NCBI GenBank assembly: GCA_045401115.1
Contig: CP174359.1
Span: forward strand, 122,288 to 186,287
Direction of reading: 5' to 3'
Origin: Candidatus Phycocordibacter aenigmaticus
GTDB lineage: Bacteria; Patescibacteriota; Minisyncoccia; Phycocordibacterales; Phycocordibacteraceae
Length of the DNA stretch: 64,000 nt
The position numbers and the translations under genes were made by a program. Under the pieces are notes generated by a model. The model searched no databases. It saw only the letters and a program-made list of their open reading frames with translations, and had not been told where the DNA came from. Numbering within the stretch: the stretch's first letter is position 1; each line of letters begins with the position of its first letter. This document shows, in pieces, positions 43,407 through 63,840 of the stretch.

Positions 43407-43565
43407 GGAAAATATGTTATCCCCAGTACTGTCCACAAGCTAAAAATAGGGGGCTTGCCAAAATGGCAACTTTCTAATAAAAATAGAGCGTCTCGTACAC
43501 TCTCTTTTAGGAGAGTCACAAAGCTTAGATCTTTGGGAGACACACCTTAGTCATTAACAAATACA

Positions 43566-43760
43566 ATGCATATGCAAACATTAACTGACCTTGATCTTCT
43601 TCTTGAGCTCGACGAAGAGGAAATGGAAGATGAAGATGGGGATGAGGAACTAGATACTGACCTTGCTCCTGAAATGGACATGGATGAAGATGACGACACT
43701 GATGAAGACGGTGACGACTCAGACGATGAGGACGACACTGACAGCGACGACTGGAACTAG
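43566..43760 (+). CDS. Hyper-acidic 64-aa protein (D/E ~55%), followed by a strong terminator
   Basis: MHMQTLTDLDLLLELDEEEMEDEDGDEELDTDLAPEMDMDEDDDTDEDGDDSDDEDDTDSDDWN; terminator aaaaaacccgcgccaagcgcgggtttttta at 43780-43809. Confidence 0.45.
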   Translation: MHMQTLTDLDLLLELDEEEMEDEDGDEELDTDLAPEMDMDEDDDTDEDGDDSDDEDDTDSDDWN

Positions 43761-43807
43761 TCAGCTGTATCTCACTTAATAAAAAACCCGCGCCAAGCGC
43801 GGGTTTT

Positions 43808-45007
43808 TTATTTCCGTACTATTTTTACAAATACACGTTTACCGAGTCGCAGCACTGTACCATCAGCAACACTGTCAATATCCTCTTTAGTGAGCTTTTG
43901 TCCGCCATCTGCTACTTTAACTCCCCCACCTTCAAGAAGGCGACGGAATTCGCTTTTTGAGGCAACGACCCCACACTCACTCAAAGCGTCGGCAATAGCT
44001 GTGTCGTGCCCCACAACACATTCAGGAACATCTTGAGGTACCTCTTTTTGAGCAAATGTTTTTTCAAAATACTCTTTTGCTTCATCCGCTGCTCGCTGTG
44101 AGTGATACATTCGGACCACTTCATACGCCAACTCTTTTTTTGCGTCTCTCGGGTGACCGCCTATTAACTCAGAAACTCGAGAAAGTGGTACACGAGTGCA
44201 GTGTACAAAATATGATTCGATAAGTGTGTCGGGAATGGACATTATTTTTCCATACATATCATCAGCAACATCAGTGAGGTTGATAGTATTACCCCAACTA
44301 GAACTCATCTTTCTTCCGTCTGTACCTAAAATAAGTTCAGTGGTTAAAATGTGCTGCGGCTCTTGGCCATAACGAGACTGCAGCGTACGTCCCGCAAGAA
44401 GATTAAAACGTTGATCTGTGCCCCCAAGTTCAACATCAGCATTTACCGCAACCGAGTCATACCCCTGCATAAGGGGGTACATCACCTCACGCAATGACAC
44501 CCGCTTCCCTTCATCAAGTCGACGTTTAATATTATCGCGAGCAATAAAATCAGAAACTGAAAACTGATCGGCATGTTCTCCAATTTCCTGATAAGTGAGT
44601 TTGGAAAGCCACTCGGCATTACTTTTCCTTTCAACTAGGTTGAGGTTGAGAACCTTACCTGCTTGTTCAAAATACGTTTTTTTATTTTTCAAAATTGTCT
44701 CTCGGTCCAACATAGGACGCTCCGCACTCTTATCAGACGTATCGCCAATCACCGCAGTGAAATCACCGACAATCAAAACCACTTCGTGACCAAGCTCTTG
44801 AAAGTCACGAAGTTTCAGCAGTGTCACCGCGCGCCCAAGATGAATATGAGGGCTGGTAGGATCAATTCCAAGTTTTATACGAAGCCGCTTCCCACTCATA
44901 AGAAGTTCTTTAAAAGAATCTTCCCCAGGAATAAGTTCCGTAACACTCCGAGAAAGCAGCTCGTCTATCTTCTTTTCATCAGTAATCACTTTTCTGGCAC
45001 CAAACAT
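43808..45007 (-). CDS. tyrS: Tyrosyl-tRNA synthetase
   Basis: 399 aa; KMSSS variant of KMSKS; C-terminal S4-like domain. Confidence 0.88.
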   Translation of the reverse strand: MFGARKVITDEKKIDELLSRSVTELIPGEDSFKELLMSGKRLRIKLGIDPTSPHIHLGRAVTLLKLRDFQELGHEVVLIVGDFTAVIGDTSDKSAERPMLDRETILKNKKTYFEQAGKVLNLNLVERKSNAEWLSKLTYQEIGEHADQFSVSDFIARDNIKRRLDEGKRVSLREVMYPLMQGYDSVAVNADVELGGTDQRFNLLAGRTLQSRYGQEPQHILTTELILGTDGRKMSSSWGNTINLTDVADDMYGKIMSIPDTLIESYFVHCTRVPLSRVSELIGGHPRDAKKELAYEVVRMYHSQRAADEAKEYFEKTFAQKEVPQDVPECVVGHDTAIADALSECGVVASKSEFRRLLEGGGVKVADGGQKLTKEDIDSVADGTVLRLGKRVFVKIVRK

Positions 45008-45122
45008 ACCCTTTATGCTACCACGACACCTACCTCAATGGCGCGCACACACGACCATACAAGAAACCGTCCTATATAATAAATAAAGTAGCTTCGCAGA
45101 CGGTTTCTGGTACGATACACCT

Positions 45123-47255
45123 ATGTTTGGTAACGCACTTAAAACAGTATTTCTTATCGCCCTCTCGATTGGATTTTTTATCGGGGGTGCCCTTTTTGTA
45201 TGGGCGGCTAGTTTTAAAATCCCTGATATAGATTCTCTTAAAAACCGTAAGGTCTCACAGTCGGCAAAAATTTATGACCGATCTGGCGAAATCCTACTCT
45301 TTGACCTTCACGAAGACATTGACCGTACCGTAGTTCCTATCGATGATATCTCTCCGCATATCCGTAACGCAACAGTAGCTATTGAGGATTCAACATTTTA
45401 TGAACATATTGGAATCCGGCCCATAGCAACACTGCGCGCGGTATTTATTCAACCACTTCGTGGTCACCGCGTACAAGGTGGCTCAACCATTACCCAACAA
45501 GTGGTAAAAAACTCAGTACTCACTAGTGAACGACAGATATCACGAAAAATCATTGAGTGGGTGGTGGCGCTACGCCTTGAACGTGAAATAGGAAAAGAAG
45601 ATATTTTAGAAATTTACCTCAACGAGTCTCCATATGGCGGTACTATTTATGGCGTTGAAGAAGCATCCCAAGCTTTCTTTGGGAAACCGGCTGCTGAAGT
45701 CACTATTGCCGAAGCCGCATACCTCGCTGCTCTTCCTCAAGCACCTACATACTTCTCGCCATACGGTAATAACCGTGATGAACTTGAAACACGAAAAAAC
45801 GTTGTTCTCTCTCGTATGCGCGAGATTGATTTTATTACACAAGAACAGTACGACACTGCGCGAGCAGAAGAAGTTGAGTTTCAGTCACAAGCATTATCAG
45901 GGGTACGGGCACCACACTTCGTTTTCTATGTACGCGAACAACTCGAACAAGAATACGGGCGACGAACACTTGAAGAATCTGGTTGGCGTATCATCACCAC
46001 ACTCGATATGGAACTGCAAGAAGCTGGGCAGCGAATTGTAGAAAAATTTGCGAAAGAAAACACTGAAAAGTTTAATGCAGAGAACGGGGCGATTGTCGCT
46101 GTTGATCCTAAAAACGGCGATATTCTCACTATGGTTGGTTCTCGTGATTATTTTGATGAAGATATTGATGGAAACTTCAATATCGCCCTTGCAAAGCGCC
46201 AACCTGGTTCAGCGTTTAAACCATTTGTGTATGCGCAGGCGTTTCGTGAAGGGTACGCCCCAGAAACAGTCGTTTTTGACCTCAGAACTCAGTTCTCAAC
46301 GTCGTGTGAGCAGGATAATCATGAACTAAACGAAGGCGATTGTTACTCACCACGAAACTATGATAATGAATATCGTGGACCAATGTCGTTACGCGACGCA
46401 TTGGCGCAGTCAGTTAATGTTCCCGCAGTAAAAGCACTCTACCTTGTCGGTATTTCTGACGCACTTCAACTAGCTCGTGCTATGGGTATTAGCACTCTTA
46501 AAAATGCAGGGCAATATGGCCTCACTCTTGTGCTTGGCGGTGGTGAAGTAACACTACTTGATATCGTCTCCGCATATGGAGTATTTGCAAACGAGGGAGT
46601 AAAAAACGAACACCGAAGCATCCTACGTATCGAAGATACTAATAAAAACACAGTAAAAGATTACACAACAAACTCAGAACGTGTTCTCGAGAGTGCTGTT
46701 GCGCTTAATGTATCTGACGTGCTCTCTGACAATGAGGCACGTACCCCCGCTTTTGGGGCCAACTCACCACTCTACTTCCCCGGCTACCATGTAGCAGCAA
46801 AAACCGGTACCACTAATGACTCACGTGATGCGTGGATTGTAGGATACACTCCAAACATCGCGGTTGGCGCATGGGCAGGTAACAATGATAATAGTCCAAT
46901 GGTAAAAGAGGTTGCTGGTTTCATTGTGGCACCTATGTGGCGCGAGTTTATGAATATAGCACTCGAAAAAACAACTCAACCACCATTCCCAAGTGCACCA
47001 CAACTCGTTTCAGAAAACGACAAACCGATATTACAAGGAATTTGGGAAGGGGTGGATATTCAAGACGATCCATCGGGGAAACTCCGTATTACCGCCAACA
47101 TTCATTCTATTTTATATTGGGTAGATAAAGAAAACCCACAAGGACCACGACCAGAAAACCCACAAGAAGATTCACAGTTTTCTCGATGGGAATACAGCGT
47201 ACGTGCATGGGTGAACGAAAATAACCTTCACGACGGCACACTTCTTTTTCGATAA
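45123..47255 (+). CDS. Penicillin-binding protein 1A (bifunctional glycosyltransferase/transpeptidase)
   Basis: 710 aa; GT51 motifs AIEDSTFYEHIGI and GGSTITQQ; transpeptidase SAFKP (SxxK), SVN, KTGT. Confidence 0.9.
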   Translation: MFGNALKTVFLIALSIGFFIGGALFVWAASFKIPDIDSLKNRKVSQSAKIYDRSGEILLFDLHEDIDRTVVPIDDISPHIRNATVAIEDSTFYEHIGIRPIATLRAVFIQPLRGHRVQGGSTITQQVVKNSVLTSERQISRKIIEWVVALRLEREIGKEDILEIYLNESPYGGTIYGVEEASQAFFGKPAAEVTIAEAAYLAALPQAPTYFSPYGNNRDELETRKNVVLSRMREIDFITQEQYDTARAEEVEFQSQALSGVRAPHFVFYVREQLEQEYGRRTLEESGWRIITTLDMELQEAGQRIVEKFAKENTEKFNAENGAIVAVDPKNGDILTMVGSRDYFDEDIDGNFNIALAKRQPGSAFKPFVYAQAFREGYAPETVVFDLRTQFSTSCEQDNHELNEGDCYSPRNYDNEYRGPMSLRDALAQSVNVPAVKALYLVGISDALQLARAMGISTLKNAGQYGLTLVLGGGEVTLLDIVSAYGVFANEGVKNEHRSILRIEDTNKNTVKDYTTNSERVLESAVALNVSDVLSDNEARTPAFGANSPLYFPGYHVAAKTGTTNDSRDAWIVGYTPNIAVGAWAGNNDNSPMVKEVAGFIVAPMWREFMNIALEKTTQPPFPSAPQLVSENDKPILQGIWEGVDIQDDPSGKLRITANIHSILYWVDKENPQGPRPENPQEDSQFSRWEYSVRAWVNENNLHDGTLLFR

Positions 47256-47260
47256 ACACC

Positions 47261-47557
47261 TTAACGAATCTCCCTAACCACCTCCTTTGCACGTGGAAGA
47301 CGTTCGAAAAGATTTTCAAAAACCAATGCACGGTTAACGTGTATAACATTACGTACTACCGAAGAAACATTAATATACGCAACTCCATTTGAAATAGTAA
47401 TTTGTTTCTTTGAACAAGAAACATCAACAGTCTCTTTTAAAGCTGCAATTAACTCCACCTTCACCGAATCATTTGGTGGGGCGAGGTTTTGAAACCGGTC
47501 TAGAAAATCACCAATTAACTTCATATATCTATTATTATAAAGGTTTTTAAAAATCAA
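47261..47557 (-). CDS. dciA: DUF721/DciA-like protein (replicative helicase loader candidate)
   Basis: 98-aa ORF immediately downstream of dnaN in the conserved dnaA-dnaN-(dciA) arrangement. Confidence 0.5.
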   Translation of the reverse strand: MIFKNLYNNRYMKLIGDFLDRFQNLAPPNDSVKVELIAALKETVDVSCSKKQITISNGVAYINVSSVVRNVIHVNRALVFENLFERLPRAKEVVREIR

Positions 47558-47671
47558 TGAGATGCGCGGCGTCGAGGAGCTAGGGTGCGAGTCGTACTTT
47601 CTTGTACGATGAAGTAGCCGCGCGACGAAGACAACAAAGCAGGTCGTGGTTTTTAGAAACCTCTCTTTAAC

Positions 47672-48772
47672 CTACTTGTTCATTGGCATTACAAGGTAAG
47701 TAAACCCCTTATCAGGAACCTCACTAATAATAAGCGGCTTCCCAACTCCGGAGAATTTAAACACCAAACTATCAGTCACCACTGTACTTAATGCATCAAG
47801 AATATACCGTATATTAAAATTAACTTGGATAGGTTCACCTTCAAGTGCAGCATCAACAGACTCTCTACTTTCACCAACTTGTGTATTAACACCATTTACT
47901 GAAAGCAGTTTACTTGAAGGGTCTAAGTTAAACGCCACCTGCCCCGCCTGGTCGGTTACCACAGCAACCTTTTTTAAAGCCCGTTGCAGGTCTTCAGTAA
48001 GTAATGTCGCTGTGGTGGTGAAATCTTTTGGGATAATTGCAGTGTACTCAGGAAAAGCACCGTCGATCACCCGTGATGTTATAAAATTCCCATCACTCAT
48101 ATAGGTAACCTGGTTTTCACCAACACGAACCTCAACAGTATCAGTCCTCTCAATAACCCGTAAAATATCCGGTATATTACGGGCCGGAAGAAGGATCGAA
48201 TCAATATTATTCTTCACTTTTATATCAGCTTTTATTTCAGATAGACGAAAAGAGTCTGTTGCGGCGGTTATCAACATCCCATCTTGGACTGTAAGAAAAA
48301 CACTCGCTAACTCAGGACGCATACCTGAGGTTGCTGCCGCAAAAACAACACCCTTAAGGGAACGAGAAAATTCCTTCACAGGAAGTGTCAAAGATACCCC
48401 CTCTCCTTCTTTTACACAGGGTAAGGTGGGGAAATCACTCACATCAATAGTGTTTAGTTTTACCTCACCGTGACCAGTAATAATTTTTAATATCCCCTCA
48501 TCACTTTCGAGGGTTATTTTTTCATCCGAAATAGCATTAACTGCCTGACTAAATACATGCGCCGGGACAGCGACATCCCCTTCTTTAACAACCTTTGACT
48601 TTAGAGCAATTTCAACACTCACATCAAGATTGGTTGCTCTTAGTGTTGTTTTATTTTGTGTTGCCGATATAACCACACACCCCAATACTGGTAATGATAA
48701 ATTTTTATTACTCACTCGAGAAACTATTTGAGTTGCGTCTTCTAAATGTTTTTTTAATAATTCTAATTTCAT
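47672..48772 (-). CDS. dnaN: DNA polymerase III beta sliding clamp
   Basis: 366 aa; three-domain clamp pattern. Confidence 0.9.
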   Translation of the reverse strand: MKLELLKKHLEDATQIVSRVSNKNLSLPVLGCVVISATQNKTTLRATNLDVSVEIALKSKVVKEGDVAVPAHVFSQAVNAISDEKITLESDEGILKIITGHGEVKLNTIDVSDFPTLPCVKEGEGVSLTLPVKEFSRSLKGVVFAAATSGMRPELASVFLTVQDGMLITAATDSFRLSEIKADIKVKNNIDSILLPARNIPDILRVIERTDTVEVRVGENQVTYMSDGNFITSRVIDGAFPEYTAIIPKDFTTTATLLTEDLQRALKKVAVVTDQAGQVAFNLDPSSKLLSVNGVNTQVGESRESVDAALEGEPIQVNFNIRYILDALSTVVTDSLVFKFSGVGKPLIISEVPDKGFTYLVMPMNK

Positions 48773-48979
48773 ATACTTTTTATTTTTATACTCTGTGAGA
48801 TGTGTGGATTACAGTTTATATCTTTAAAGTTAAGGCTGTATTCACAAAGGTGTGCTGGGTAACGGTGTGTGTAAGTCTTGTGAATAACAAACCAGTAAAA
48901 CAGAAAAAGTTGTACACAAAACAATTAACATATTTTTTAGATTGGTTATACCGATAGTTATTCATATACTCTTCCACAG

Positions 48980-50327
48980 TTATTTCAACATGCTACGCAC
49001 TTCTCCAATTTCATTTTTGAAATCTTCGTTACCACTAAGGTCTGTTTTTATTTTTTCACAGGCATGAATAACAGTAGTGTGGTCGCGCCCACCAAAGACA
49101 GAACCAATTGCAGGGTATGAGAGATGAAAATCTTCTCGAAGTATGTACATAATTATTTGCCGAGGGCGAACTATTTCGCGTTTTCGTGTTTTTGCATACA
49201 TAGATGCCTCTTCAACACCATAAAACTCAGCAACTTTTCCTATAATGTTTTTCACAGAAACAGAGCGCTTTGGTTTAGTGGTTGATTTAATAACATCTTT
49301 TATGGCGGTATCATTTAACTCACTATTGAGTTGAGTTTGTATAAGGATGGTGTTGAGCATCCCTTCAATCTCTCTAATATTACCGGTAATTGCCAAAGAA
49401 AGGTGTTCAATAATTTCGTCGCTTAAATTAAGGCCAATTGAGTTTGCTTTGGTTTTAATAATAGCCATACGTGACTCATGGTCGGGTTCTTGTATTGCAA
49501 CAGTCATGCCAGAGACAAAACGTGACTGGAGGCGGTCAGTAAGATCAGGAATAAGATTAGGGTGTTCGATCTGATGAACACACAATTTGTTTGTTACAGT
49601 CATGTAGTGTGTTGAAGAGATGGAAAAACTCTTCCTGAAGCGTCCCTTTTTTCGAGAAAAACTGTATATCATCCATAATTAATACATCATAGGCACGATA
49701 CTTCTCTTTAAAAGTGGGGATGGTGCGATTATTAATCGCATTCATAAATTCAAAACCAAACCGTTCTGCGGTAAGGTAGTACACTTTTTTTTGAGCGACT
49801 GTTTTTTTAATATGATTCCCCACACTTTGTATTAAGTGTGTTTTTCCACGCCCTGTTTCTCCATAAATAAAGAGTGGGTTATATGAAATGCCTGGGTTTT
49901 TTGCTACTGCACTTGCCCCAGCGAATGCAATTTCATTAAATGGACCAACCACAAAAGTATCAAATGTATATCGCGGGTTAAGGTTATCTGATCGATTAAC
50001 ATAATAATCAGCTAACGGGAGTTCAGAACCACTCTTTTCTTCAGTAGGAACTTTTTCAGGCACTCGTTTCGGTTCTTGTTTTGAAACAACATATTCAATA
50101 CCGCGCACTGTATCTACAAACCCTCTGATGGTTTTTAAAATAAGCTTTCCGAAACGCTCGGAAAGCCATTCTTTAGTAAGTTGATTCGGTACACCAACGT
50201 ATACCACTCCCCCTTCTATACGGATAATATGTGTTTCGCCAAACCACATTTTAAAACTTGCTGGGGAAATTGAGAGTTCAATGTTGGTCAAAGTGTTTTC
50301 CCAAAGCTGTTTTGTATCAAGTTCCAT
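48980..50327 (-). CDS. dnaA: Chromosomal replication initiator DnaA, interrupted by an apparent +1 frameshift at a CCC run near 49557-49560 (ORFs 49557..50327 and 48980..49672 overlap)
   Basis: N-terminal ORF has GETGRGKTHL and MDDIQFF...KQIVCSSDRTP*; the other frame continues PNLIPDLTDRLQSRF...and the C-terminal DNA-binding domain. Removing one C restores canonical SDRTP-NLIPDLT-DRLQSRF spacing. Confidence 0.85.
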
Positions 50328-50546
50328 AATAAAACGTAGAGTGAATGAGTTTCCCTATTATACCTGTGTGGAAAAGAAAATAAACATGAGGAAAAACCAA
50401 GTATATGTTAGTAACCTGTGTACAACCTGTGCACAACCTAATTTCAGTAAAAAATAGTAGAATACAGCTTTGACAATTCCACCTCACATGGTAATATCGC
50501 GCATACGTACTCTCATTAGAGACAGAGACGATATAATACATATTGT
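50328..50546. promoter_or_regulatory. Probable oriC / dnaA-rpmH divergent control region with DnaA-box-like motifs
   Basis: TGTGGAAAA (50366-50374), TGTGTACAA and TGTGCACAA (~50424-50448) resembling TGTGGATAA; an AT-rich stretch; flanked by dnaA and rpmH. Confidence 0.6.
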
Positions 50547-50684
50547 ATGCCAAAGAGAACCTATCAACCTAAAAAAAGAAAACGTGCTAAAACTCACGGT
50601 TTTTTATCTCGCTCAAAAACTCCTTCAGGCCGTCGCGTACTTGCTCGTAGGCGTCAAAAAGGTCGCGCAAAGCTCGCTGTATAG
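50547..50684 (+). CDS. rpmH: Ribosomal protein L34
   Basis: [45 protein letters not shown] (45 aa; below the ORF-track length cutoff). Confidence 0.9.
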
Positions 50685-50693
50685 TCAGACACT

Positions 50694-51014
50694 ATGTTGT
50701 CTAAAAAGGCGCGACTTTCTCGAGATGATTTCCCTAAAAAGCGCGCAACAAAGCGGTACCCTCTCTCGTGGGGTGCTGTTTTAGTTTACCCACACAATCA
50801 TTTTAAGGCAGCAGTAGTGGTTTCAAAAAAAACACTTAAAAAAGCGCACGAAAGGAATAGGCTCAAACGTCGTGTTTATGCAGCTCTCGAGTCTTTATCA
50901 ACAGAAGTACTACTGGTAAAAGTGGTAGTACTTCCCCGCTCAGAGGCGCTTACTGTACCTTTAGGTGCACTAAAAACTGACCTTGAACACGTGTTAGGCA
51001 AAGAAATGCACTAA
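50694..51014 (+). CDS. rnpA: RNase P protein component
   Basis: 106 aa; basic; position after rpmH. Confidence 0.8.
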   Translation: MLSKKARLSRDDFPKKRATKRYPLSWGAVLVYPHNHFKAAVVVSKKTLKKAHERNRLKRRVYAALESLSTEVLLVKVVVLPRSEALTVPLGALKTDLEHVLGKEMH

Positions 51015-51057
51015 AAACATTTTAGTTATCGTATTTCTGGGTTAGAATGCACTCAAT

Positions 51058-51798
51058 ATGATTGGACTTTTTGACACATTTATTTACGAGCCTATTTACA
51101 ATGCGCTCGCGTTCATTATTAACATTACCCCGGGTGCAGATATTGGAATCGCGATCATTGTCCTTACGTTAATTATTAAATTCATTCTTTTTCCGCTCTC
51201 GCTTAAGGCAGTCCGCACTCAAGCAGCAATGCGTGAAATTGATCCCGAGTTAAAAAAAATCAAAGAAGAGTTTAAAGAGAACAGAGAAGAGCAGGCGCGG
51301 CGGACCATGGCGCTTCTTAAGGACAAAAAAATCAACCCGTTTGCGAGTTTCCTCCTCATTCTGATACAGCTCCCTGTCATTATTGGACTCTATTTTGTCT
51401 TTTTAGGTAATGGTGGCGGCATAGGTTTTGACCCAGCTGTCCTTTACTCTTTTATTTCTGTTCCAGAGAATGTGTCCTTTAACTTTCTTGGGATTATTGA
51501 CCTTTCAGGGCGCAGTATTGCCCTTGCTGCACTTGTAGCGGCGACACAGTTTGTGAACGCACGCCTTATGATGCCGAACGCTCCAGACGCCGAAGCAGGT
51601 ACCCTTAAGGGTGACTTAGCAAAGAGTATGCATATGCAGATGCGTTGGGTGTTCCCTATTGTTATGGGAGTGGTGGCGTATGTTATTTCAGCAGCCATTG
51701 CACTATACTTTCTTATATCGAACCTCTTCCAACTTTTCCAAGAACTCTACGTAAAACATAATCAAAGCACTGATGCCAATGGAGAAAGTCAACATTAA
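51058..51798 (+). CDS. yidC: Membrane protein insertase YidC (short form)
   Basis: 246 aa; multi-TM; conserved position after rnpA. Confidence 0.8.
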   Translation: MIGLFDTFIYEPIYNALAFIINITPGADIGIAIIVLTLIIKFILFPLSLKAVRTQAAMREIDPELKKIKEEFKENREEQARRTMALLKDKKINPFASFLLILIQLPVIIGLYFVFLGNGGGIGFDPAVLYSFISVPENVSFNFLGIIDLSGRSIALAALVAATQFVNARLMMPNAPDAEAGTLKGDLAKSMHMQMRWVFPIVMGVVAYVISAAIALYFLISNLFQLFQELYVKHNQSTDANGESQH

Positions 51799-52237
51799 AG
51801 AATATATAACCACTCTTGTTCAAAAACTTGGAGCGACCGTCGCTGAAGTAGATGTTTTTGAGGATGCGCGCGGCACAGTGGTTAATCTTACTGTTACTGA
51901 TAATGCACATGCACTCATTGGTCCTCATAAAGAAACACTACGCGCCCTCAATCATATTGTTCGGCGTGTTACTGAAGGGCAGTCTGAGGATGAGGTACCT
52001 ATACGAGTGGATATCAATAACCATGAAACCAACCACCTTCGTTTTTTGGAGAACCAAGCACAACAGCTTGCCGAGAGGGTCGTAACCTTAAAACAAGAGG
52101 TTGAAATGACGCCAATGAACCCATACGACCGCATGATCGTACATGAAACCATACGTGACATAGAAGGAGTAAGCACTCAGTCTGTCGGCGAGGGGCGACT
52201 CCGTCATGTTGTTATCCAACCGGATACAGATCAATAG
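51773..52237 (+). CDS. jag: Jag/KhpB-like RNA-binding protein (KH + R3H domains)
   Basis: 154 aa; R3H-like NPYDRMIVHETI. Confidence 0.7.
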   Translation: MPMEKVNIKEYITTLVQKLGATVAEVDVFEDARGTVVNLTVTDNAHALIGPHKETLRALNHIVRRVTEGQSEDEVPIRVDINNHETNHLRFLENQAQQLAERVVTLKQEVEMTPMNPYDRMIVHETIRDIEGVSTQSVGEGRLRHVVIQPDTDQ

Positions 52238-52241
52238 TATA

Positions 52242-53225
52242 TTAAAAATTTAGTCGGAAACTCGTTTCTGCCTGTTCAAATATTTGTTGCAGGTTTTTTA
52301 ATTCAAATGAAATAGGCGCACTTCCTCCTCCGTCTCCTGAGCGGCGAAGCGTGAGCTCCCGTTCAGTGCGCCCGGTATTTTTAGTTACCTCGCCATTAAC
52401 ACGCCATTCGTATTCAGGTGTAGTAATATCTTGCACAAACAAAGGAAAAGCCTGGAAGGTCACTTCGTCTTCATTTAGATTTTTTATATTTGTAATAGCG
52501 CGGTCAAATCGAAGCCCAAGAAGCGGCATATATTCATATACGACTATCTCCGGACGAACAGGGGTCACTGTGACGGTATGAGTTGCTTGTTGAACACCGT
52601 CCGGACTCTGAACAGTCACTGATACGTCAAAATTATTCTCAAATTGCGGTGAATCGATTGAGATTGAGTGTACCCCTACCCCAGTGCGTACTGGGCGTGG
52701 AGACCCGTTTATAAACCAACTATATATAAGATTGTCTGGATTTAGGCGACTCCCATTTTGTATAAAGTAAGGGATCGCTGAAAGTATCGTCCTACTGCTC
52801 CCAGTGGGTAGTGGACGCCCTTCATAAAAAGGAGGAGTATAGGTATCTCCTTCCCATTCAATAGAAACTAATGCTGGACGAAGACGGAGCTGTTTTTCTG
52901 CCACCGGCGCACCATCTTGTGAAAGTGTAAGGTTTATTGTCGTTACTGACCCACTTTCACCCAACTGAACTTGAATAGCATCACGTCCAACTCCTTGGTC
53001 AACAATACTGCCGTTGACGCGCCATATAAAAAGAGCGCTTCCAAGTGTGGACGATATATTTTGCGCTCGCACTGTTATCACAGACCCCGGTTCTGGGTTT
53101 CTAGGAATCGTTTCCAAACTTAACCCGGTCTCTAAATTGGGAACAAAAACCGCATATACTAAAAGGGGTGCCATGAAAATGGTTACAGCAAGTGTGGCAA
53201 GGAGTAAGCGCATGGTTGATTTCAT
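52242..53225 (-). CDS. Hypothetical secreted beta-rich protein, last gene of the T4SS-like cluster
   Basis: 327 aa; signal/TM MRLLLATLAVTIFMAPLLVYAV. Confidence 0.45.
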   Translation of the reverse strand: MKSTMRLLLATLAVTIFMAPLLVYAVFVPNLETGLSLETIPRNPEPGSVITVRAQNISSTLGSALFIWRVNGSIVDQGVGRDAIQVQLGESGSVTTINLTLSQDGAPVAEKQLRLRPALVSIEWEGDTYTPPFYEGRPLPTGSSRTILSAIPYFIQNGSRLNPDNLIYSWFINGSPRPVRTGVGVHSISIDSPQFENNFDVSVTVQSPDGVQQATHTVTVTPVRPEIVVYEYMPLLGLRFDRAITNIKNLNEDEVTFQAFPLFVQDITTPEYEWRVNGEVTKNTGRTERELTLRRSGDGGGSAPISFELKNLQQIFEQAETSFRLNF

Positions 53226-53279
53226 ACCTCTGTACCCATTATAGAGGCAAAACTGCTCCTCGGGCAGCAGGTGTGGGGA

Positions 53280-55088
53280 CTATTCTTCATTATCTTTATT
53301 TCTTCGTCCAATAGCCAAGAGTTGTGACGGGTCTGATGTGATTATTTGATCTTCAGTGTATGATGCAATGATTTTAATCGCTACATGTTTTAGGCCCGCA
53401 AAGAATATCCCCTCACCTACAGTGGACTCAAGTAGTAAGTATTTTTCTTCTTCAGTGAGGTTAAAGGTTTTTTGTACTGCATCAATAGATGACGGTGATT
53501 GTTTAAGAAGAAGCTGGATAGATGAGTTGGTAATCATTGGCATACCATAGGGTGAGCGGAGGAAGTCTTCTACGTCTTGGGTAATAGTAGCGAGCCCTAA
53601 GTAGTATTTACGTCCTCGTTTTGCCATAGAGTAAAGGAAAGAGGCGGTATCTTCTGACTTCATCATCCACCACGCCTCGTCGATCACCAGGAGACGTTTA
53701 CGCAACTCTTTACGTACTGCATTCCAGATATAGTGCATCACGATATACATAGCAACAGGTTTGAGCTCATCCTCCATGTCACGTACCGAGAACGCCACAA
53801 ACTTTTTATTAATGTCCACGTTAGTAGGGCGGTTGATGAACCCTGACCAGGTGCCTTTTGTATATTTTGAGAGGCGTTGCACTAACGACTCTGACCCTTC
53901 CATACCCGCAAGCACGAGTTCAAAATCAGAGAGTAGTGGCGGCTCCATACCAGTGAAATCTGCGTCACCAGTAATATCTTTCAATGCATAGGTTTCAGTA
54001 ATGGCGCGGTCAATAATCGCGTCTTCTTCAGGTGAAAGTCCACCAAGCATGATACGAAAGAGTCCCACCAATGTCACAATGTTTGACCGCAGTACGTCTG
54101 CCGGCGCTTCATCTTCTCGAGGAGCTGGAAGATCAAAAGGGTTAATATGATTCTCTGAAGAGAGTGAAATATCAAAGAAACGCCCACCCACTGCATTCGC
54201 GAGGTACTCGTACTCACTTTCCGGATCAATCACCAGCACCTCGGTGTCGAACATGAGGGAACGCAGGATCTCAAGTTTAGTGGCATAACTTTTACCAGAA
54301 CCTGATTTTGCGAACGTTACCGAGTTATAGTTTTCAAGTGAGAAGCGGTCAAATAAAATAAGTGATGCGTTATGACGGTTAATACCATAGAGAATGCCGC
54401 GGTCTGAAGTGAGGTCAAATGAAATGAATGGAAAAAGACTGGAAAGTGGTGAAGAATTGAGTTTTGAGTGTACTCTCAGCTCATCTTTCCCGGTAGGAAT
54501 AACACTTTTGAATCCTTGTTCTTGCTGGAAGAGCGCCGGCTTTACATACACGAGCTTAGCGTCAAGAATTGAGCGTATTTCTGACTCAGTTTTATCAAGA
54601 TCCTCCGAATTATTACCATAGATGGTTATATACACTCCCACATCAAAAATACGCTCCTGCGCCTGCTGTAGCTTGTCACGCAACGCCTCAATGTCGCGGT
54701 AGGCAGTGTCAAGCACCGGATCGCGCACCAACCCTTTCTCTTCCCTACTCATTACCTGGCTTTGAATTTCTGCTACTTTCTTTTGAAATTTACGCAGTAC
54801 TGCCGCGGTATCAATAGGGTGTACGTAAATTGATACATCGAACACCTTATCAAGGTTAATAATAGGAGAGAACCAACTCTCAGAGAGAAAACGCGGGTAT
54901 GAGATTACATAGAATGTACGCGCGAGTTTATCACCTAAGTTCATCTCACGCGGCGTTATCTTGAGCGCACTTGGCGCGATGATGTCGGCAAAATCCAGCT
55001 TTGCAGCTTCATAAATATCTTTTGGTAAAAACGGCGTAATATCGTCATCACCTTTCTTTTTCCCCGGCAAAAAATCAAAAATTCCCAT
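53280..55088 (-). CDS. virB4: VirB4/TraC/TrbE-family type IV secretion ATPase, C-terminal ATPase part (602 aa). In frame with the upstream 224-aa ORF and separated from it by a single TAA.
   Basis: Walker A AKSGSGKSYATK; Walker B LLVIDEAWWMM; overall VirB4 pattern. 55095 and 55088 ends share the same reading frame. Confidence 0.8.
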   Translation of the reverse strand: MGIFDFLPGKKKGDDDITPFLPKDIYEAAKLDFADIIAPSALKITPREMNLGDKLARTFYVISYPRFLSESWFSPIINLDKVFDVSIYVHPIDTAAVLRKFQKKVAEIQSQVMSREEKGLVRDPVLDTAYRDIEALRDKLQQAQERIFDVGVYITIYGNNSEDLDKTESEIRSILDAKLVYVKPALFQQEQGFKSVIPTGKDELRVHSKLNSSPLSSLFPFISFDLTSDRGILYGINRHNASLILFDRFSLENYNSVTFAKSGSGKSYATKLEILRSLMFDTEVLVIDPESEYEYLANAVGGRFFDISLSSENHINPFDLPAPREDEAPADVLRSNIVTLVGLFRIMLGGLSPEEDAIIDRAITETYALKDITGDADFTGMEPPLLSDFELVLAGMEGSESLVQRLSKYTKGTWSGFINRPTNVDINKKFVAFSVRDMEDELKPVAMYIVMHYIWNAVRKELRKRLLVIDEAWWMMKSEDTASFLYSMAKRGRKYYLGLATITQDVEDFLRSPYGMPMITNSSIQLLLKQSPSSIDAVQKTFNLTEEEKYLLLESTVGEGIFFAGLKHVAIKIIASYTEDQIITSDPSQLLAIGRRNKDNEE

Positions 55089-55094
55089 ATATGC

Positions 55095-55769
55095 TTATTG
55101 ATTGTTAAGTGAAATCGGCTTTTCCAGTTCCCCTGGGTTGAATTCCTTATATAAAAGTTCTATCACCTCCTCGGTGCCCAGTGGCGCTAGACGTACCCCT
55201 GTACGCGCCAACCCTTGTTCAACAACCGACATGCGTTGCTCAAGTTGGGTACGGTACTCTTCAAAACCTACATCTTTCTCCTCAGCAGAAAGTTTACTAT
55301 TACCAAAAAAGGTACTCGCAATATTTTTCTTTACGTCCAAAATAGGTGGATTATACGGAATTACAATAAAGAATCGCTTCTCCATGATATTTACCCGTTC
55401 AGTGATAGAGCGAATAAACTCAATATATTCACGTACTTGAATCTTCATCAACTCTTCTGTTTGTTCGCGTAGACGCTCTTCAAGGAGTGCGATATACGGC
55501 CGTATGTCGAGCCGGCGTGATTGCACAAAAAGTTGTACTGAGAAATCAAGCGAATTGAGGAAGTTTTGGAATTGAGACAGAATCGCCATTTGTTCATCTT
55601 GGCTCTTTAAAGCAAAGTTAAGGCTCGATGCCAGCATAACCCCCACCAAGGTGTCATCCTTCAGTACCATTAAGCCACCGCGCACCTCTTTAATAGGTAC
55701 AAAGTCTTGAGCGGCTTTTGTTTTTTTTGTATTCTGCGCCACAGCTTTTATTGTAACGTATAAAAACAC
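55095..55769 (-). CDS. VirB4 N-terminal domain-like protein (224 aa), in frame with the downstream VirB4 ATPase ORF
   Basis: N-terminal VirB4-like region; the two ORFs together give ~828 aa, the usual VirB4 length. Confidence 0.55.
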   Translation of the reverse strand: MFLYVTIKAVAQNTKKTKAAQDFVPIKEVRGGLMVLKDDTLVGVMLASSLNFALKSQDEQMAILSQFQNFLNSLDFSVQLFVQSRRLDIRPYIALLEERLREQTEELMKIQVREYIEFIRSITERVNIMEKRFFIVIPYNPPILDVKKNIASTFFGNSKLSAEEKDVGFEEYRTQLEQRMSVVEQGLARTGVRLAPLGTEEVIELLYKEFNPGELEKPISLNNQ

Positions 55770-55879
55770 ACCGACGGTGTTTTTTACGATACGTAATCAC
55801 AGTATGTCTGTATTGGTATTAAAACACCGACAGCCTTGCATGACTATCGGTGTACTCATCAACCTCTTTTTTATAGAAT

Positions 55880-56263
55880 CTAAACCTTTCCTCCTTGGGT
55901 GGCTTGCTGTTTGGCGTTATTGTATACACCCTGTATTCCCTTGTACACTGCCCACGCTAAGAAAAGCTCAAACATGCCGGCACGTATTAATTCTCCAACA
56001 TCACCTGAGCTCACCTGTACAGTGTCATAAGAAAAAAAAGACGCATCCTCCCCTTCAATATCAGCTCCATTTTTTAAATGCTCAATCCGTCCTGGATCGT
56101 TTTCTGGGTCATAGGTGTTACGCAGTCTATGGTCATCAAAAGTGCCATCAAACGCGTCTGCAGCAACAGGTCCAATAGCCATGGGGTAAAAAATAGCTCC
56201 AATCATGGTCCCTCCCATTATTGATTGGTTGAAAGTTAGATTTTTACTTTTCTCTGCTCCCAT
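55880..56263 (-). CDS. Hypothetical small protein with a C-terminal hydrophobic helix
   Basis: 127-aa ORF upstream of virB4 on the same strand. Confidence 0.35.
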   Translation of the reverse strand: MGAEKSKNLTFNQSIMGGTMIGAIFYPMAIGPVAADAFDGTFDDHRLRNTYDPENDPGRIEHLKNGADIEGEDASFFSYDTVQVSSGDVGELIRAGMFELFLAWAVYKGIQGVYNNAKQQATQGGKV

Positions 56264-56359
56264 AATGAATATAATATACTACATTTTGTATATATTGTCA
56301 ATACTCTCTCGAATAGGAATTATTGACATTAACATATATTACTGTATTATCACAAAAGT

Positions 56360-56746
56360 ATGAGATTAGGACGATTACGTTTTTTTGCTCCCCTTTCTAA
56401 CTCGGTTATTGAAGGAGTTAGTAAGAGCGCTGCCCCTGGTGGAATACTTAATAAGGGTGGACAAAAACTACGAGAAGCTGCTCCTTCAATTAAGAATTCA
56501 GGAGACTTACTCGGTCTCACTGTAGGTGGTGCAGCACTGTTAGCTTTATCAAACAAAGACTCACGAGAATTCCTATTTGATTCTAGTGAAGGTGCATACG
56601 ATTTTTTTACTGGAAGCCGAGAAGGGTTTGTGGAAGCGGCTGGTACCACTGAATTATGGACCACCCCTGAGATGGGTGTGATTTATGCGTTTATTGCAAT
56701 AGCTATAGCAGATCGTCTTGGTTTCCAACCTCTAAAGAAAGTTTAA
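56360..56746 (+). CDS. Hypothetical small protein (one TM near the C-terminus), divergent from the T4SS-like cluster
   Basis: 128-aa ORF; the AT-rich divergent promoter region 56264-56359 has TTGACA/TGTCAA palindromic elements. Confidence 0.35.
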   Translation: MRLGRLRFFAPLSNSVIEGVSKSAAPGGILNKGGQKLREAAPSIKNSGDLLGLTVGGAALLALSNKDSREFLFDSSEGAYDFFTGSREGFVEAAGTTELWTTPEMGVIYAFIAIAIADRLGFQPLKKV

Positions 56747-56750
56747 ACTA

Positions 56751-57182
56751 CTAGCGTTGCGATTCATCGGAATAAATACTTTCTTTAATATCTAGGCTCC
56801 ACGCCAAATCCTTGAGTTTATTTGATGTAGCTGCTGGGGCGTATTTCCCTGGATCGTCTTCTTTTTTTAGATCCCCCTGATTTACAATTTTTGGTTTTGT
56901 CGCACGTTCTTTATCCCAAATATATAACTGATCTTTGGTATTAAATTCTACCGCCGCTTGAAGTACCTCAATAAACGGTCGGTCGTTTACCTTATAAAAT
57001 GCGAGCGCCAGACCAAGTATTGCTATTGGCCCTCCTACAAGGATAGCGAGCCACAGTGGCAGTACTATCCACATAGCTACCAAGAAACCAACTCCTCCGG
57101 CAAGGTAGACAAACTGCGTCACCGTGAGCGGTCCGAATATCTTATCTTCTACTTCAATAAACTGTGGTACTTGAAAACGCAT
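56751..57182 (-). CDS. PrgI/VirB3-like small membrane protein (2 TM)
   Basis: MRFQVPQFIEVEDKIFGPLTVTQFVYLAGGVGFLVAMWIVLPLWLAILVGGPIAILGLALAFY. Confidence 0.5.
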   Translation of the reverse strand: MRFQVPQFIEVEDKIFGPLTVTQFVYLAGGVGFLVAMWIVLPLWLAILVGGPIAILGLALAFYKVNDRPFIEVLQAAVEFNTKDQLYIWDKERATKPKIVNQGDLKKEDDPGKYAPAATSNKLKDLAWSLDIKESIYSDESQR

Positions 57183-57226
57183 ATATGTAGGCTATTTCTT
57201 TAGCATACCATTGTGGTATGCGAGTT

Positions 57227-58483
57227 CTATATCCCTTCCCCATTCTCAAGGTCACTCTCGGTTTTTGTGTCATCAGTCGGCTCGTATAATCTGAGGGACC
57301 ACAAAGTTAAATCGTTTTTATTAAGAAACGTTACATAATTTCCATCGTAACTTACCTGCGGACGCCAAACATCAATTTGGGCGTCAACTTCGTCTGACGG
57401 TAGGGCAAGCAACATGCTGACACCATCTGAGATAGTAAATAGCCATAGGTCATCTTCAAAAACCGTTTGTCCTAAAAGCCAATGAACCGTCGCATTGCTA
57501 GAGAGTGTTTCTCGAGGAACTCCACAGGCGAGGTGTTCCTCGTTAGGAGTAAATGCGCATTTTGATGCAATAGTATTAAGCGGTGTTAGGAAGATTTGTT
57601 CTTCTTGGGTGTCGTACACTGAAAGAGACGTGTCGCGTTCTCCGCCACTCATTACTATATATCGTCCACTCGGACTTACCTGTGCTGTTAAGCTTTCTAC
57701 TCCACCGACAATATGAGTGAGATTGCTGTTAGTAATTTGGTACACTGCACCCGCAATTCCTGAGGCAGGGGCGGTGTGTACATACAAAGCGGCATCACTT
57801 TGTAGTGGTATCCATGAACGAATACGAGAAGAAAAGATAGTGCGTTCATTTTCTCCATTCACGTCAGAAAGTGTTATAACACTTCCATCTTCTGTTTCGT
57901 ATACTGCGAGTAGATTTTCTCCTGCTTGATCTATACTTGCGCGTTGCCACTGTGACATAAATGAACCACCGAAAGCGTTTTCCTCGTTCTCTTCGGAGTT
58001 AATAGTAGTGTAGAAGTTTTCTGTATCACCGTCTTCGTTAAAATAACGAATAATAAAATTATTTTCATCTATCCAAGTTACATCATGTATCTCAGGCACA
58101 GTCGTATTTGAGATACGTGTCGCAGTGCGACCTTCAGCAGGCACATCGTATATGTGCCCGGTAGCACGGTCAATATATCGAATAATAGGTTCTTCTTCTG
58201 CATTCTCATATATAAATGCACCCACTGTCGGTTGGTTGCTCACTTGACGAAGCTGTGGCACAGGTCGTGTGTCTTCTGTTTTTGGTACATCTGCACCACC
58301 ACCTGTACCTCCTGAGGGGGTAGTATCTCCTGAGCCAAATGGAAAGAGGCCGCTAAAGAAACCTCCTGAATCTTCCCCGTTTGAATCGAAGGTATTTCTT
58401 GATGAATCTAAATAAAACGCGATAAACGCAGCACCTAACACGAGAACGAGCGCTATAAAAAATAAAATAATAGTCCGTCGCAT
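57227..58483 (-). CDS. Membrane-anchored secreted protein with a predicted beta-propeller-like ectodomain
   Basis: 418 aa; N-terminal TM IILFFIALVLVLGAAFIAFYL, then G/S-rich linker. Confidence 0.45.
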   Translation of the reverse strand: MRRTIILFFIALVLVLGAAFIAFYLDSSRNTFDSNGEDSGGFFSGLFPFGSGDTTPSGGTGGGADVPKTEDTRPVPQLRQVSNQPTVGAFIYENAEEEPIIRYIDRATGHIYDVPAEGRTATRISNTTVPEIHDVTWIDENNFIIRYFNEDGDTENFYTTINSEENEENAFGGSFMSQWQRASIDQAGENLLAVYETEDGSVITLSDVNGENERTIFSSRIRSWIPLQSDAALYVHTAPASGIAGAVYQITNSNLTHIVGGVESLTAQVSPSGRYIVMSGGERDTSLSVYDTQEEQIFLTPLNTIASKCAFTPNEEHLACGVPRETLSSNATVHWLLGQTVFEDDLWLFTISDGVSMLLALPSDEVDAQIDVWRPQVSYDGNYVTFLNKNDLTLWSLRLYEPTDDTKTESDLENGEGI

Positions 58484-58552
58484 ACGTATAGATATTGTAC
58501 CAGGTTTATCCCCTCTCGTTGTTAATACAAACGGAGTTTTGTATTAAATCAA

Positions 58553-59122
58553 CTACTCAATTGGTTCGCGGTACGGGTCAACGGTTTTGTACTGCGTTTT
58601 AGGTTGTGGTGATCCATCTTCTTCACTGAATGCATCCACTTCTACCTCTTCTAGTTTTTCGCGTCGTGAAGTGCCGAGGGTTGGTTCTGTGAAAGTAGAT
58701 ATTTTTTCATCGGCAACTTTCGGCTGTGCTGGTGTATTGTCTTGAGACGGTTCAAGAGGTTGTGCCGGCACTGGCTTTTCTTGTTTTTTCTCTTCAAGTT
58801 GTTTCCTCTTTTCATCAAGATACACCCGGAACGGCTTAAACAGCATGTTATTAACATCATTCAATACCACACTGTAGAGAGCGCTATTTTGCTCAAGTGC
58901 TTCTTGAAGCATCTCTGAAAATCGTGCGGTGGGTACTAGACCTAAGAACACTGCTTCGACAGCGTTGGCAATATTCCCTAGCTCATCAAAATGGAGATTG
59001 TGTTTTGTGCGGAATGCACTAAATGCGTCAATATACTCCTCCGAGTTCATGTACTGCTGAACTAGGGGCGATGTTTTCGAATACGCTTCTTTTATTTGTT
59101 GTGCCGTGGGAATAAGTGCCAT
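58553..59122 (-). CDS. Hypothetical protein
   Basis: 189-aa ORF within the T4SS-like cluster. Confidence 0.4.
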   Translation of the reverse strand: MALIPTAQQIKEAYSKTSPLVQQYMNSEEYIDAFSAFRTKHNLHFDELGNIANAVEAVFLGLVPTARFSEMLQEALEQNSALYSVVLNDVNNMLFKPFRVYLDEKRKQLEEKKQEKPVPAQPLEPSQDNTPAQPKVADEKISTFTEPTLGTSRREKLEEVEVDAFSEEDGSPQPKTQYKTVDPYREPIE

Positions 59123-59139
59123 AGTGCTATATGTTTGTA

Positions 59140-61491
59140 TTAATTTTCATCATCTGGTCCTCGGTCAATGTTTTCCTGGTTTGGTGGTGTATTTGGTGGC
59201 TGAGGTGACGGTTGAGGATCTGTGCGGGTAGTACCCATATCCGCGAGTTCTTCTTGAGCTACAGGTGCTTTGCGTCCACGCTCCACAGCTTGTGTAGATT
59301 CGTTATATTTCTTCACGACCTTAGTTTGAGCGCGCATACTGATATTTTGCATCTGCGCTTCAGAAATTTCTCCCTCGCGTGGTTCTTTTCCTGGTTCAGC
59401 TTGGCGACGGTTTATTGCAGAAAATTCTTCTACATTAAGTAGTTGCGCCATTTCAGGTTGTTCAAGCACCTCAGGTGGGAGCGCTGCAACTTGACTGGTA
59501 CCATCTGGACCATTGGTACGCAGTTTATCTACCAACATCTTTGCAGAACGTCTATCCTGGGCAAGAGCCATAAGATCTCTTTTTTCTTCTGCTCGTTCAG
59601 CTAGTTTTTCTTGTGTAAATTCAACACGATCACGTTGCTTCTCAGTTAACCGACCACGTACCGCTTCTTGGGTCAGTCCTTCAATTGCGGTGACCACTTT
59701 CTGTAGCTGTTGCGTTTGTGTAGCATCAAGTTGTTGTGAATCTTCTGTTGGTGTACCCGAAGCTCCGGTTTTCGTTGGTGGTCTTTGGTTTTGAGTATCT
59801 ACGCGGCGCTTTGCACGCTCAACCTCAGATGGATTTTTAGAAGCACCAACCACTTGTGCAAGCGCTTTACGCTTACCTGTTTTTGTAACTTCTGCTTTTT
59901 TCTCTTCCTGAGTAAGCTCTTCATTTTTACGTTCTTTTTCTCGTTGATCTTCAGAAAGGTTTGAAAAGGCATCAACAGCATGATTATAGGCTGCTTGTTT
60001 TTCTTCTTCAGGAGCGTCATCTTGGCTGAGTACCGCTGCATATTTTGTTCGAGCCTGATCCCACTCATCTTTTTTAGCTTTTTCGTACTCTTTGTCTTGA
60101 CGTCCAGTGCGTGAGAAGGACACTGGGCCCAATTCATCACGAAGTGGTTTAAGGGTAAGCGCGTCCCCAAGGTTTCTTTTCCCTCCGGTAAGCGCCAGAG
60201 GAGTACCCCCCACCCATTTAGCTGCTCCTCCAAGAGTTTTTCCGACTGCCTGAGCAGCGGTTGGTATCACTTTTTTATATGCGCCATAGAACTGACCAGT
60301 GGTTGGTGGTGTGAACTCTTCTTGTCGTGCAATTCCCATTGAAATTTTCATAGCAAAATAAAGAAGGCCAAAACCAAGCGCGTATATTACTACCAGATCA
60401 AGCGCAGCTGACCATCGAGTGCCGCCAGCTGCTGAAATAAATGTTGGATTTGCAATTAGGTCTACCAATGTTCCGTCTCCAAGGGCTACCGCTGAAGCAT
60501 TTTCCAGTACTTTAAGTGCAGCTGCGGCAAACAAGAGAAATACCACAGGGAATACTGCTTGACTGTACAGCGCTGACCACCACGCCTTCCCAAACTTTTG
60601 TATACCAGGAATATCAATGAACGCGAGTATCCCTATAGGAGATGTCATAAGGAGAATTACTATCACAATAAAGCGCTGTATAAAAAGCGCTGCCATTGAA
60701 AAAAATATAAAAAATGTTGCTCCCATGAACACCACTCCGATAAGTCCCATCATGAAAAGCATAGCCCCATCCATTTTACTTAAGTCTTCATCAAGTTCGT
60801 AGATTGATGCAAGTTTTGTGGCATTCATAAATCGCGTCGTTATTGCGCGACCTCCTTGGAGAGCACTTGTGACTTCGTTATCGCCAACACGCTCTTCTGA
60901 GTCAATATCGATAACCAAGGCTTCTTGGTAAATCATACGTGACGTAAAATGTGAGGCGTCTAGTATGGCGCCGGTAAAGAAATAGCTAAAATTCACCAAA
61001 AGAGCAGCAATAATAATAGTCACAATTATCCGCCCTACTTTTTGTGCAGAGCCAAGAATGATATTAATTGATGCCCAAATTAACCCACCAATAAAAACGA
61101 GATTCACAAGATCGCGCAGCACAATCCAAATTGCGCTTATAGAAGATCCAATACCTCCACCTACCGCAAGTCTTTCCGAAGCTTGTATAAGCCATCGGGT
61201 AATTGTCCAATCAAAAAATCCCGCACCAATGCCAAGAAAAACACCGCCCATTTGAAGCATCATGCCGGCGATTCCGGCACTATTGTTACATTGCCCTCCT
61301 CCAACAAGCGGTATATTTCCAACCGCACACGTGAGAAGTGCGGTGAGTATAATTAATATAAAAATACCCACCGTTCCAGCGGCGATGAGCAACAAAATAA
61401 TTGATTTACCTCCTCCTTTTATTGCACCCCACATATTGTTATTGTGACACAGTTTCTTCCTCTTCGGGATCGCAATAGGTTGCTGGGTCAC
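59140..61491 (-). CDS. VirB6/TrbL-like polytopic membrane protein with a long charged coiled-coil C-terminal region
   Basis: 783 aa; ≥8 TM helices in the N-terminal 420 aa, then a K/E/Q-rich tail. Confidence 0.55.
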   Translation of the reverse strand: MTQQPIAIPKRKKLCHNNNMWGAIKGGGKSIILLLIAAGTVGIFILIILTALLTCAVGNIPLVGGGQCNNSAGIAGMMLQMGGVFLGIGAGFFDWTITRWLIQASERLAVGGGIGSSISAIWIVLRDLVNLVFIGGLIWASINIILGSAQKVGRIIVTIIIAALLVNFSYFFTGAILDASHFTSRMIYQEALVIDIDSEERVGDNEVTSALQGGRAITTRFMNATKLASIYELDEDLSKMDGAMLFMMGLIGVVFMGATFFIFFSMAALFIQRFIVIVILLMTSPIGILAFIDIPGIQKFGKAWWSALYSQAVFPVVFLLFAAAALKVLENASAVALGDGTLVDLIANPTFISAAGGTRWSAALDLVVIYALGFGLLYFAMKISMGIARQEEFTPPTTGQFYGAYKKVIPTAAQAVGKTLGGAAKWVGGTPLALTGGKRNLGDALTLKPLRDELGPVSFSRTGRQDKEYEKAKKDEWDQARTKYAAVLSQDDAPEEEKQAAYNHAVDAFSNLSEDQREKERKNEELTQEEKKAEVTKTGKRKALAQVVGASKNPSEVERAKRRVDTQNQRPPTKTGASGTPTEDSQQLDATQTQQLQKVVTAIEGLTQEAVRGRLTEKQRDRVEFTQEKLAERAEEKRDLMALAQDRRSAKMLVDKLRTNGPDGTSQVAALPPEVLEQPEMAQLLNVEEFSAINRRQAEPGKEPREGEISEAQMQNISMRAQTKVVKKYNESTQAVERGRKAPVAQEELADMGTTRTDPQPSPQPPNTPPNQENIDRGPDDEN

Positions 61492-62908: not shown

Positions 62909-63840
62909 GATGATGTGGTTATAGTAGTAAATATTTGGTGTGCTTCAGCAAAACGATCTTCGGCAGCAATAAATGCATCAAGTGCAAGTAGTGTTCGGTA
63001 CGGATCTTCGTAGTGCGTGCTCATAAGCGTAATTGCATATGTAGCGGCGCTAATGGAATTAATCATTTCAAGATGAGTTCCAGAGACTGTAGTAGGAGTA
63101 GGAATTGCGAGGAGATCATTAATAATCTCAGCATAGAGCGCAATATTGGTTGTAAACTGTCGAAGGTGTATTAAGTCGCCTGTGTCGAGTAGTTTATAAA
63201 GGGTCACTGTTTCATGTTCAGGCACCGCCTCTGCTTTAGTTAATACTTTTTGTACTTCACTCGCGTATGTTGCTATTGCATCGCCGCTTTCATTATTATT
63301 CACCTGTATATCCTCAAAAGTATATTGCGGCGGTTCGATGTCCAACACATTTCGCTCTACAACTGATTCAATAGCTGTCTGCAACTCTGCTTCGCTTAGT
63401 TCCCCGTTTTCTTTAAAAGAAAGGTACGCGGCAAAAAGTTCTTTCCCGAGTGCTTCAATTGGTTCGGTCCCCTCTGGCGCAACATATGGCTTTTCACTTA
63501 TTGGTTCAGTGCCATGTACGGCCGGGTCAGAACCCTGCGCTACTTCGTCTCCATCCGAGACACCATCCCCGTCCGAGTCAACATTGTTAGGGTCGGTGCC
63601 GAGAAGCACCTCTTTCCAGTTAGGGATACCGTCTCCGTCTGAGTCTGCGCGCGCGGTGATGCTGGTACCTTGTTGGTTGATCGTTAATACTTCGTTGTTT
63701 TCATTCTGCCTTATCTCATCCGTGGCTTGAGGAGCGGCAGTAAAAAAGGCAAGCGCTATCACGCCAATGGCAACTACACCAAACAGCACGAGCATTCCGA
63801 AATTCTTCCGGTTTTTCATAGTACCAGTATACCTGCACAC
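62905..63840 (-). CDS. Membrane-anchored protein with thrombospondin-type-3-like Ca-binding repeats
   Basis: 311 aa; TM MLVLFGVVAIGVIALAFF; DSDGDGIPN ... DSDGDGVSDGDE repeats. Confidence 0.45.
   Translation of the reverse strand: MCRYTGTMKNRKNFGMLVLFGVVAIGVIALAFFTAAPQATDEIRQNENNEVLTINQQGTSITARADSDGDGIPNWKEVLLGTDPNNVDSDGDGVSDGDEVAQGSDPAVHGTEPISEKPYVAPEGTEPIEALGKELFAAYLSFKENGELSEAELQTAIESVVERNVLDIEPPQYTFEDIQVNNNESGDAIATYASEVQKVLTKAEAVPEHETVTLYKLLDTGDLIHLRQFTTNIALYAEIINDLLAIPTPTTVSGTHLEMINSISAATYAITLMSTHYEDPYRTLLALDAFIAAEDRFAEAHQIFTTITTSS

Follow-up and report, generated by a model that had tools for sequence, protein, structure and literature searches.

The +1 frameshift site of prfB, the gene of release factor 2, consists of CUU UGA C together with an upstream Shine-Dalgarno-like element. 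From work on CCC-stop sites in E. coli, CCC UAA U is likewise known as a +1-prone motif. Divided genes also arise technically: in complete genomes derived from long-read metagenomes, residual indels are reported to split roughly 0.5% of genes, and a split that is unique to a single genome is classed as technical (bioRxiv 10.64898/2026.04.03.716425). Here, we describe a dnaA gene that is split by one extra nucleotide in a deposited bacterial genome, very probably by an error of the deposited sequence itself, and compare it with these systems.

The gene lies in a stretch of 64,000 nucleotides from Candidatus Phycocordibacter aenigmaticus (contig CP174359.1), referred to as the window in the following. 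On its minus strand, dnaA occupies 48980..50327 and measures 1348 nt, one more than in the strain's intact allele (1347 nt). The original prediction that a change of frame by one nucleotide near 49560 splits the gene holds: the first reading frame ends in SSDRTP followed by TAA, and the protein continues in the +1 frame down to 48980. The parts of the split gene are as follows.

50327..49557, minus strand: upstream reading frame (ORF A), 256 aa, ending in ...KQIVCSSDRTP and then TAA
49557..49559, minus strand: premature stop TAA, which the frame shift makes out of the Pro-Asn codons CC[T AA]T of the intact gene
48980..49558, minus strand: second part of dnaA, open in the +1 frame, with NLIPDLTDRLQSRF (box VII), the remainder of domain III and the helix-turn-helix of domain IV

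ORF A covers domain I and the linker and reaches into the AAA+ domain, of which it contains Walker A, Walker B, and sensor I; its C-terminus reads ...NKQIVCSSDRTP, directly followed by TAA at 49559..49557. The continuation in the +1 frame runs from NLIPDLTDRLQSRF... to ...EVRSMLK and terminates at 48980. The AAA+ module is interrupted after sensor I (SSDR) and ahead of box VII (DRLQSRF). The latter motif had first been taken for domain IV and belongs to the AAA+ domain III, the helix-turn-helix of domain IV being located at residues 359-426 of the joined product. How far the two reading frames overlap depends on the start that is assumed—116 nt from the first ATG at 49672 and 47 nt from the NCBI start at 49603—and the predicted overlap of ~50 nt agrees with the second figure. 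Neither half differs in nucleotide sequence from the intact allele, and no secondary decay is visible.

In the public annotation, the two halves appear as separate proteins. ORF A is XKT74633.1 (256 aa), named by NCBI a "DnaA ATPase domain-containing protein"; XKT74632.1 (48980..49603, 207 aa, start ATG at 49603) is named a "helix-turn-helix domain-containing protein". Both are recorded from one NCBI contig only (locus tags ACJKTH_) and never from Logan assemblies, and the assemblies index, queried for the exact 256-aa sequence, has no record of it. Four other proteins of the window are likewise known from NCBI only, with empty exact look-ups.

If the two frames are joined, a protein of 448 aa results in which all three Pfam families of DnaA are matched in canonical order.

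Residues 7-66 of the joined product: DnaA_N (PF11638), N-terminal domain I, E = 1.4e-12
Residues 116-276: Bac_DnaA (PF00308), AAA+ domain III, profile positions 1-161 of 162, E = 1.8e-63
Residues 359-426: Bac_DnaA_C (PF08299), helix-turn-helix of domain IV, E = 4e-27

The Bac_DnaA match runs unbroken across the junction at residue 256/257 of the joined product. Over its whole length, the repaired product can be aligned with B. subtilis DnaA (PDB 8BTG; E = 1.9e-99), with 0 gaps in the stretch at the junction, SSDRHPNLIPDLTDRLQSRF. The surrounding genes are those of an origin region.

47672..48772, minus strand: dnaN, encoding the beta clamp of DNA polymerase III and following dnaA directly on its downstream side, from gene calls and Pfam on the Logan contig L001 and from the NCBI name
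50547-50684, plus strand: rpmH, divergent from dnaA
50694-51014, plus strand: rnpA, divergent from dnaA
51058-51798, plus strand: yidC, divergent from dnaA
51773-52237, plus strand: jag, divergent from dnaA

With rpmH-rnpA-yidC-jag diverging from dnaA (50547..52237, plus strand) and dnaN following downstream, this context identifies the gene as the chromosomal initiator copy.

Some further observations concern the origin region itself. DnaA-box-like 9-mers with one mismatch to TTATCCACA are found in the dnaA-dnaN spacer (48773-48979), at 48803 and 48879, and in the spacer upstream of dnaA (50328-50546), at 50367. Counted over the whole window, such 9-mers show no excess over chance (24 observed vs 16.8±3.7 expected). 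Between position 1 and ~48 kb, the cumulative GC skew declines steadily, and past ~50 kb it flattens, which fits an origin near dnaA.

The extra base can be located by comparison with an assembly of the same strain. Contig L001 (Logan, run SRR31281916; 10,119 bp), reported in four samples, corresponds in reverse complement to window positions 43533-53652; the 10,120 aligned columns contain a single gap and 0 mismatches. This sole gap falls at 49565/49566, where the window reads GATCGAACACCC and L001 reads GATCGACACCC. In codons, TCA GAT CGA ACA CCC TAA of the window stands against TCA GAT CGA CAC CCT AAT of L001. Two short features of the site are relevant here.

49565..49566, minus strand: AA dinucleotide with one extra A, CGAACAC in the window, from the comparison with L001
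49560..49562, minus strand: CCC run, native (CAC CCT in the intact frame) and in the shifted frame the Pro codon before the stop

L001, otherwise identical to the window, bears dnaA as a single uninterrupted reading frame, which the window lacks. It encodes an intact DnaA of 448 aa that reads SSDRHPNLIP at the site; this sequence (P0001) is the closest database protein to the joined product. The extra A stands in a GAA context, 3-5 nt upstream of the CCC run. The original prediction had placed the indel within that run, at 49558-49560; the run actually spans 49562..49560 and is native, and the additional base is the A at 49565/49566. Deletion of one C, the repair suggested at first, reproduces the correct spacing of SDRTP-NLIP and yields the wrong residue, namely Thr in place of the His in SSDRHPNLIP. 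This repair is ruled out by the native CCC of L001 and by the conservation of His in 118 of the 120 closest homologues.

As for the immediate surroundings, the inserted A is situated 2 nt downstream of a GATC site (49568-49571, minus strand). GATC is scarcer in the window than expected from base composition (132 observed vs ~241), and this depletion may reflect a restriction-modification or methylation system specific for GATC. A methylation-linked basecalling error at the inserted A, should the assembly be based on Nanopore reads, would be a speculative extension of this observation.

The rest of the window allows for an estimate of how accurate the deposited sequence is. Further Logan contigs were reached through window proteins flagged as present in Logan. 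Altogether, six contigs of run SRR31281916 (L001 and L003-L007) cover 36,145 bp of the window and differ from it by one SNP and the dnaA indel only, so that they represent the same strain; the indel rate over the compared stretch amounts to about 3e-5 per base. No paper that names SRR31281916 was found in the literature. The SNP is located at 62820, with C on the minus strand of the window and T in L005, in a hypothetical protein of 489 aa without Pfam match (P0138, P0139). In addition, 20 open reading frames—mainly overlapping or adjacent pairs on the same strand—were scanned against Pfam for further frameshifts, and six of them gave no match. Among the pairs with Pfam matches on both sides no other broken gene was found. 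The matched pairs proved to be separate genes: PolA/TsaE, RuvB/RuvC, Tmk/MazG, NusG/SecE, and an RluA-like pseudouridine synthase/UppS; the arginyl-tRNA synthetase (ArgRS), L11, L19, and a VirB4-like ATPase gave good Pfam matches. The assembly is accurate overall, and the dnaA insertion is an isolated discrepancy.

Several features of the window were noted alongside this survey. A cluster on the minus strand at 53280-63840 contains a VirB4-like/TraG P-loop ATPase (53280-55088, 602 aa), proteins of 224, 418, 189, 783, and 489 aa without Pfam match, and an open reading frame at 62905-63840 with a bacterial TSP3 repeat (311 aa, or 304 aa in the gene call on the Logan contig). In this CPR bacterium, the cluster may encode a cell-surface apparatus or one that resembles type IV secretion. 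The reading frame of ribosomal protein L19 (14725-15381, minus strand) is 218 aa long, of which only residues 23-113 match Pfam L19; this corresponds to a C-terminal extension of ~100 aa, unless the reading frame is over-called, and the region has the highest GC content in the window (0.50). For a SIMPL-domain protein (11526-12365, minus strand), the Logan call has 279 aa with a GTG start, versus 262 aa in NCBI XKT74588.1.

Comparison with the same strain and with relatives, the latter a check to which the original prediction had pointed, bears out an intact gene: the frame is single and intact in L001, the site is unshifted in the relative L002, and all 120 closest homologues are full length. 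These homologues are single proteins of 440-486 aa that cover 98-100% of the query, and SSD[R/K]HP—with His at the affected position—is present in 118 of them. L002, 83% identical, reads GAC CGC CAC CCC AAC at the site. Between the dnaA genes of L001 and L002, 186 nucleotides differ and only nine amino acids, which argues for strong purifying selection on dnaA in this clade. Exact-pattern scans with GTGTGTTCATCAGATCGA N{0,1} CACCCTAATCTTATTCCTGATC for both alleles gave 0 hits each in genome_contigs and metagenome_contigs, so that these collections hold no further independent copy of either allele.

Taken together, the sequence comparisons make an error of consensus calling or assembly in the deposited genome the most likely source of the extra A, and we regard a technical origin as quite probable. 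In an ordinary dnaA of the intact type, CGA-CAC would have been miscalled as CGA-A-CAC, leaving a spurious A at 49565/49566. The native His-Pro-Asn codons CAC CCT AAT would thereby be read as ACA CCC TAA, giving an apparent SDRTP-stop and moving everything after it to the +1 frame. The organism itself almost certainly makes a normal DnaA of 448 aa that reads ...SSDRHPNLIPDLTDRLQSRF..., and the proteins of 256 aa and 207 aa are most likely annotation by-products of the consensus or assembly error.

An error is favored, in the first place, because an independent assembly of the same strain, reported in four samples, lacks the indel and has the intact gene, and because both halves are nucleotide-identical to that gene. 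It is further favored by the homologues, all of them single full-length proteins with His at the affected position in nearly every case, by the strong purifying selection on dnaA in the clade, and by the restriction of the split products to one NCBI record. Moreover, the split parts Walker A/B and sensor I from the arginine finger of box VII, sensor II, and the DNA-binding domain, and isolated indels that split genes are known to remain in complete genomes derived from long-read metagenomes. From what is known of DnaA, the only initiator and an essential one, it is biologically implausible that a frameshift in its gene should be the majority consensus. We do not rate the error reading higher because the extra base stands in an AA dinucleotide—not in a long, error-prone homopolymer—and because the SNP shows that the two assemblies have distinct consensus sequences, which leaves some probability for a true allele in a different sample. 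The cleanness of the window, with no other indel in 36 kb and no other broken gene in the Pfam scan of 20 reading frames, also counts against an error.

Alternatively, the extra A might be genuine, having arisen very recently as a frameshift mutation in the strain that was sampled or in one of its sub-populations, which we consider unlikely. A real insertion would account for the presence of the extra A in a deposited, apparently closed genome of 721 kb that is otherwise accurate (1 SNP and 1 indel in 36 kb), as well as for its position outside any long homopolymer; a lethal or strongly deleterious allele, however, should not be the population consensus, and the allele assembled from four samples is the intact one. 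The one true-looking SNP, by which the two assemblies differ in consensus and possibly in sample, would leave room for a real allele, whereas the split products have no second source and neither half of the gene shows sequence decay. Under a genuine mutation, DnaA function would be lost, supplied by the two fragments jointly, or partly rescued by spontaneous +1 slippage. Joint supply by fragments is hard to reconcile with a break that divides the AAA+ module between sensor I and the arginine finger of box VII, as two separate chains are unlikely to work. Rescue would draw on the shifted frame ending in CCC UAA U: at CCC-UAA, with the stop codon in the A site, tRNA-Pro in the P site would re-pair on CCU and a full-length DnaA would be made, albeit with Thr in place of a His that is kept in 118 of 120 relatives.

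The slippage product would contain ...SSDRTPNLIPDLTDR..., and the truncated product would end in ...SSDRTP. That the insertion is real and that the strain obtains its initiator either as a full-length protein (His257 to Thr) via +1 slippage of tRNA-Pro at CCC-UAA or as two polypeptides is highly improbable, and nothing that we found favors a slippage-rescued initiator or one with a split AAA+ domain. A real insertion would make dnaA a rare example of an essential initiator gene sustained by ribosomal slippage or by an AAA+ domain in two pieces.

That DnaA synthesis is regulated by an evolved, programmed +1 ribosomal frameshift like that of prfB has a very small probability and is effectively excluded: the likeness is local only—a slippery Pro codon, an in-frame stop, and a functional continuation in +1, with CCC UAA U arising solely by shifting the native CAC CCT AAT—whereas the shift site is missing from L001 of the same strain and from L002, the 120 closest homologues are all single reading frames and none is split, the 30 nt upstream of the slippery codon (ATTGTGTGTTCATCAGATCGAACA) hold no Shine-Dalgarno-like stimulator (none of GGAGG, AGGA, or GAGG), RNA folding at the site shows no gain in stability over shuffled sequence (z = -0.08), and slippage at CCC-U would swap the conserved His for Thr. 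A literature search for dnaA together with programmed frameshifting returned nothing relevant to a frameshifted dnaA.

The original prediction, which likewise took a sequencing indel as the most likely cause, is supported by L001, identical over 10.1 kb bar one base and with an intact dnaA of 448 aa. Its reservation in favor of a genuine frameshift formally stands, at a low probability. The value of this result lies in a correction of data quality, as the public record of this apparently closed Patescibacteria genome presents the initiator of replication in the form of two proteins that look unrelated, in place of the correct 448-aa sequence P0001. A split dnaA record of this type would mislead the rotation of genomes by dnaA, counts of single-copy markers, and the inference of a "missing DnaA" in reduced genomes.

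In comparison with known systems, the locus shares with prfB a P-site codon that is able to re-pair in +1 (CCC U), a stop in the 0 frame, and a functional protein in the +1 frame; unlike prfB, it bears no Shine-Dalgarno-like stimulator, is not conserved in relatives, and is absent from a contig of the same strain. Relative to canonical bacterial DnaA, such as that of B. subtilis—to which the repaired product aligns without a gap at the junction—the reading frame of the window is broken by an insertion of one nucleotide between sensor I and box VII, whereas no such break exists in the strain's intact allele. From the residual-indel gene splits of metagenome-derived complete genomes, the locus differs in its sequence context, an AA dinucleotide beside GATC and not a long homopolymer; with them it shares a conserved single-copy gene that appears as two adjacent reading frames of the same family in one assembly.
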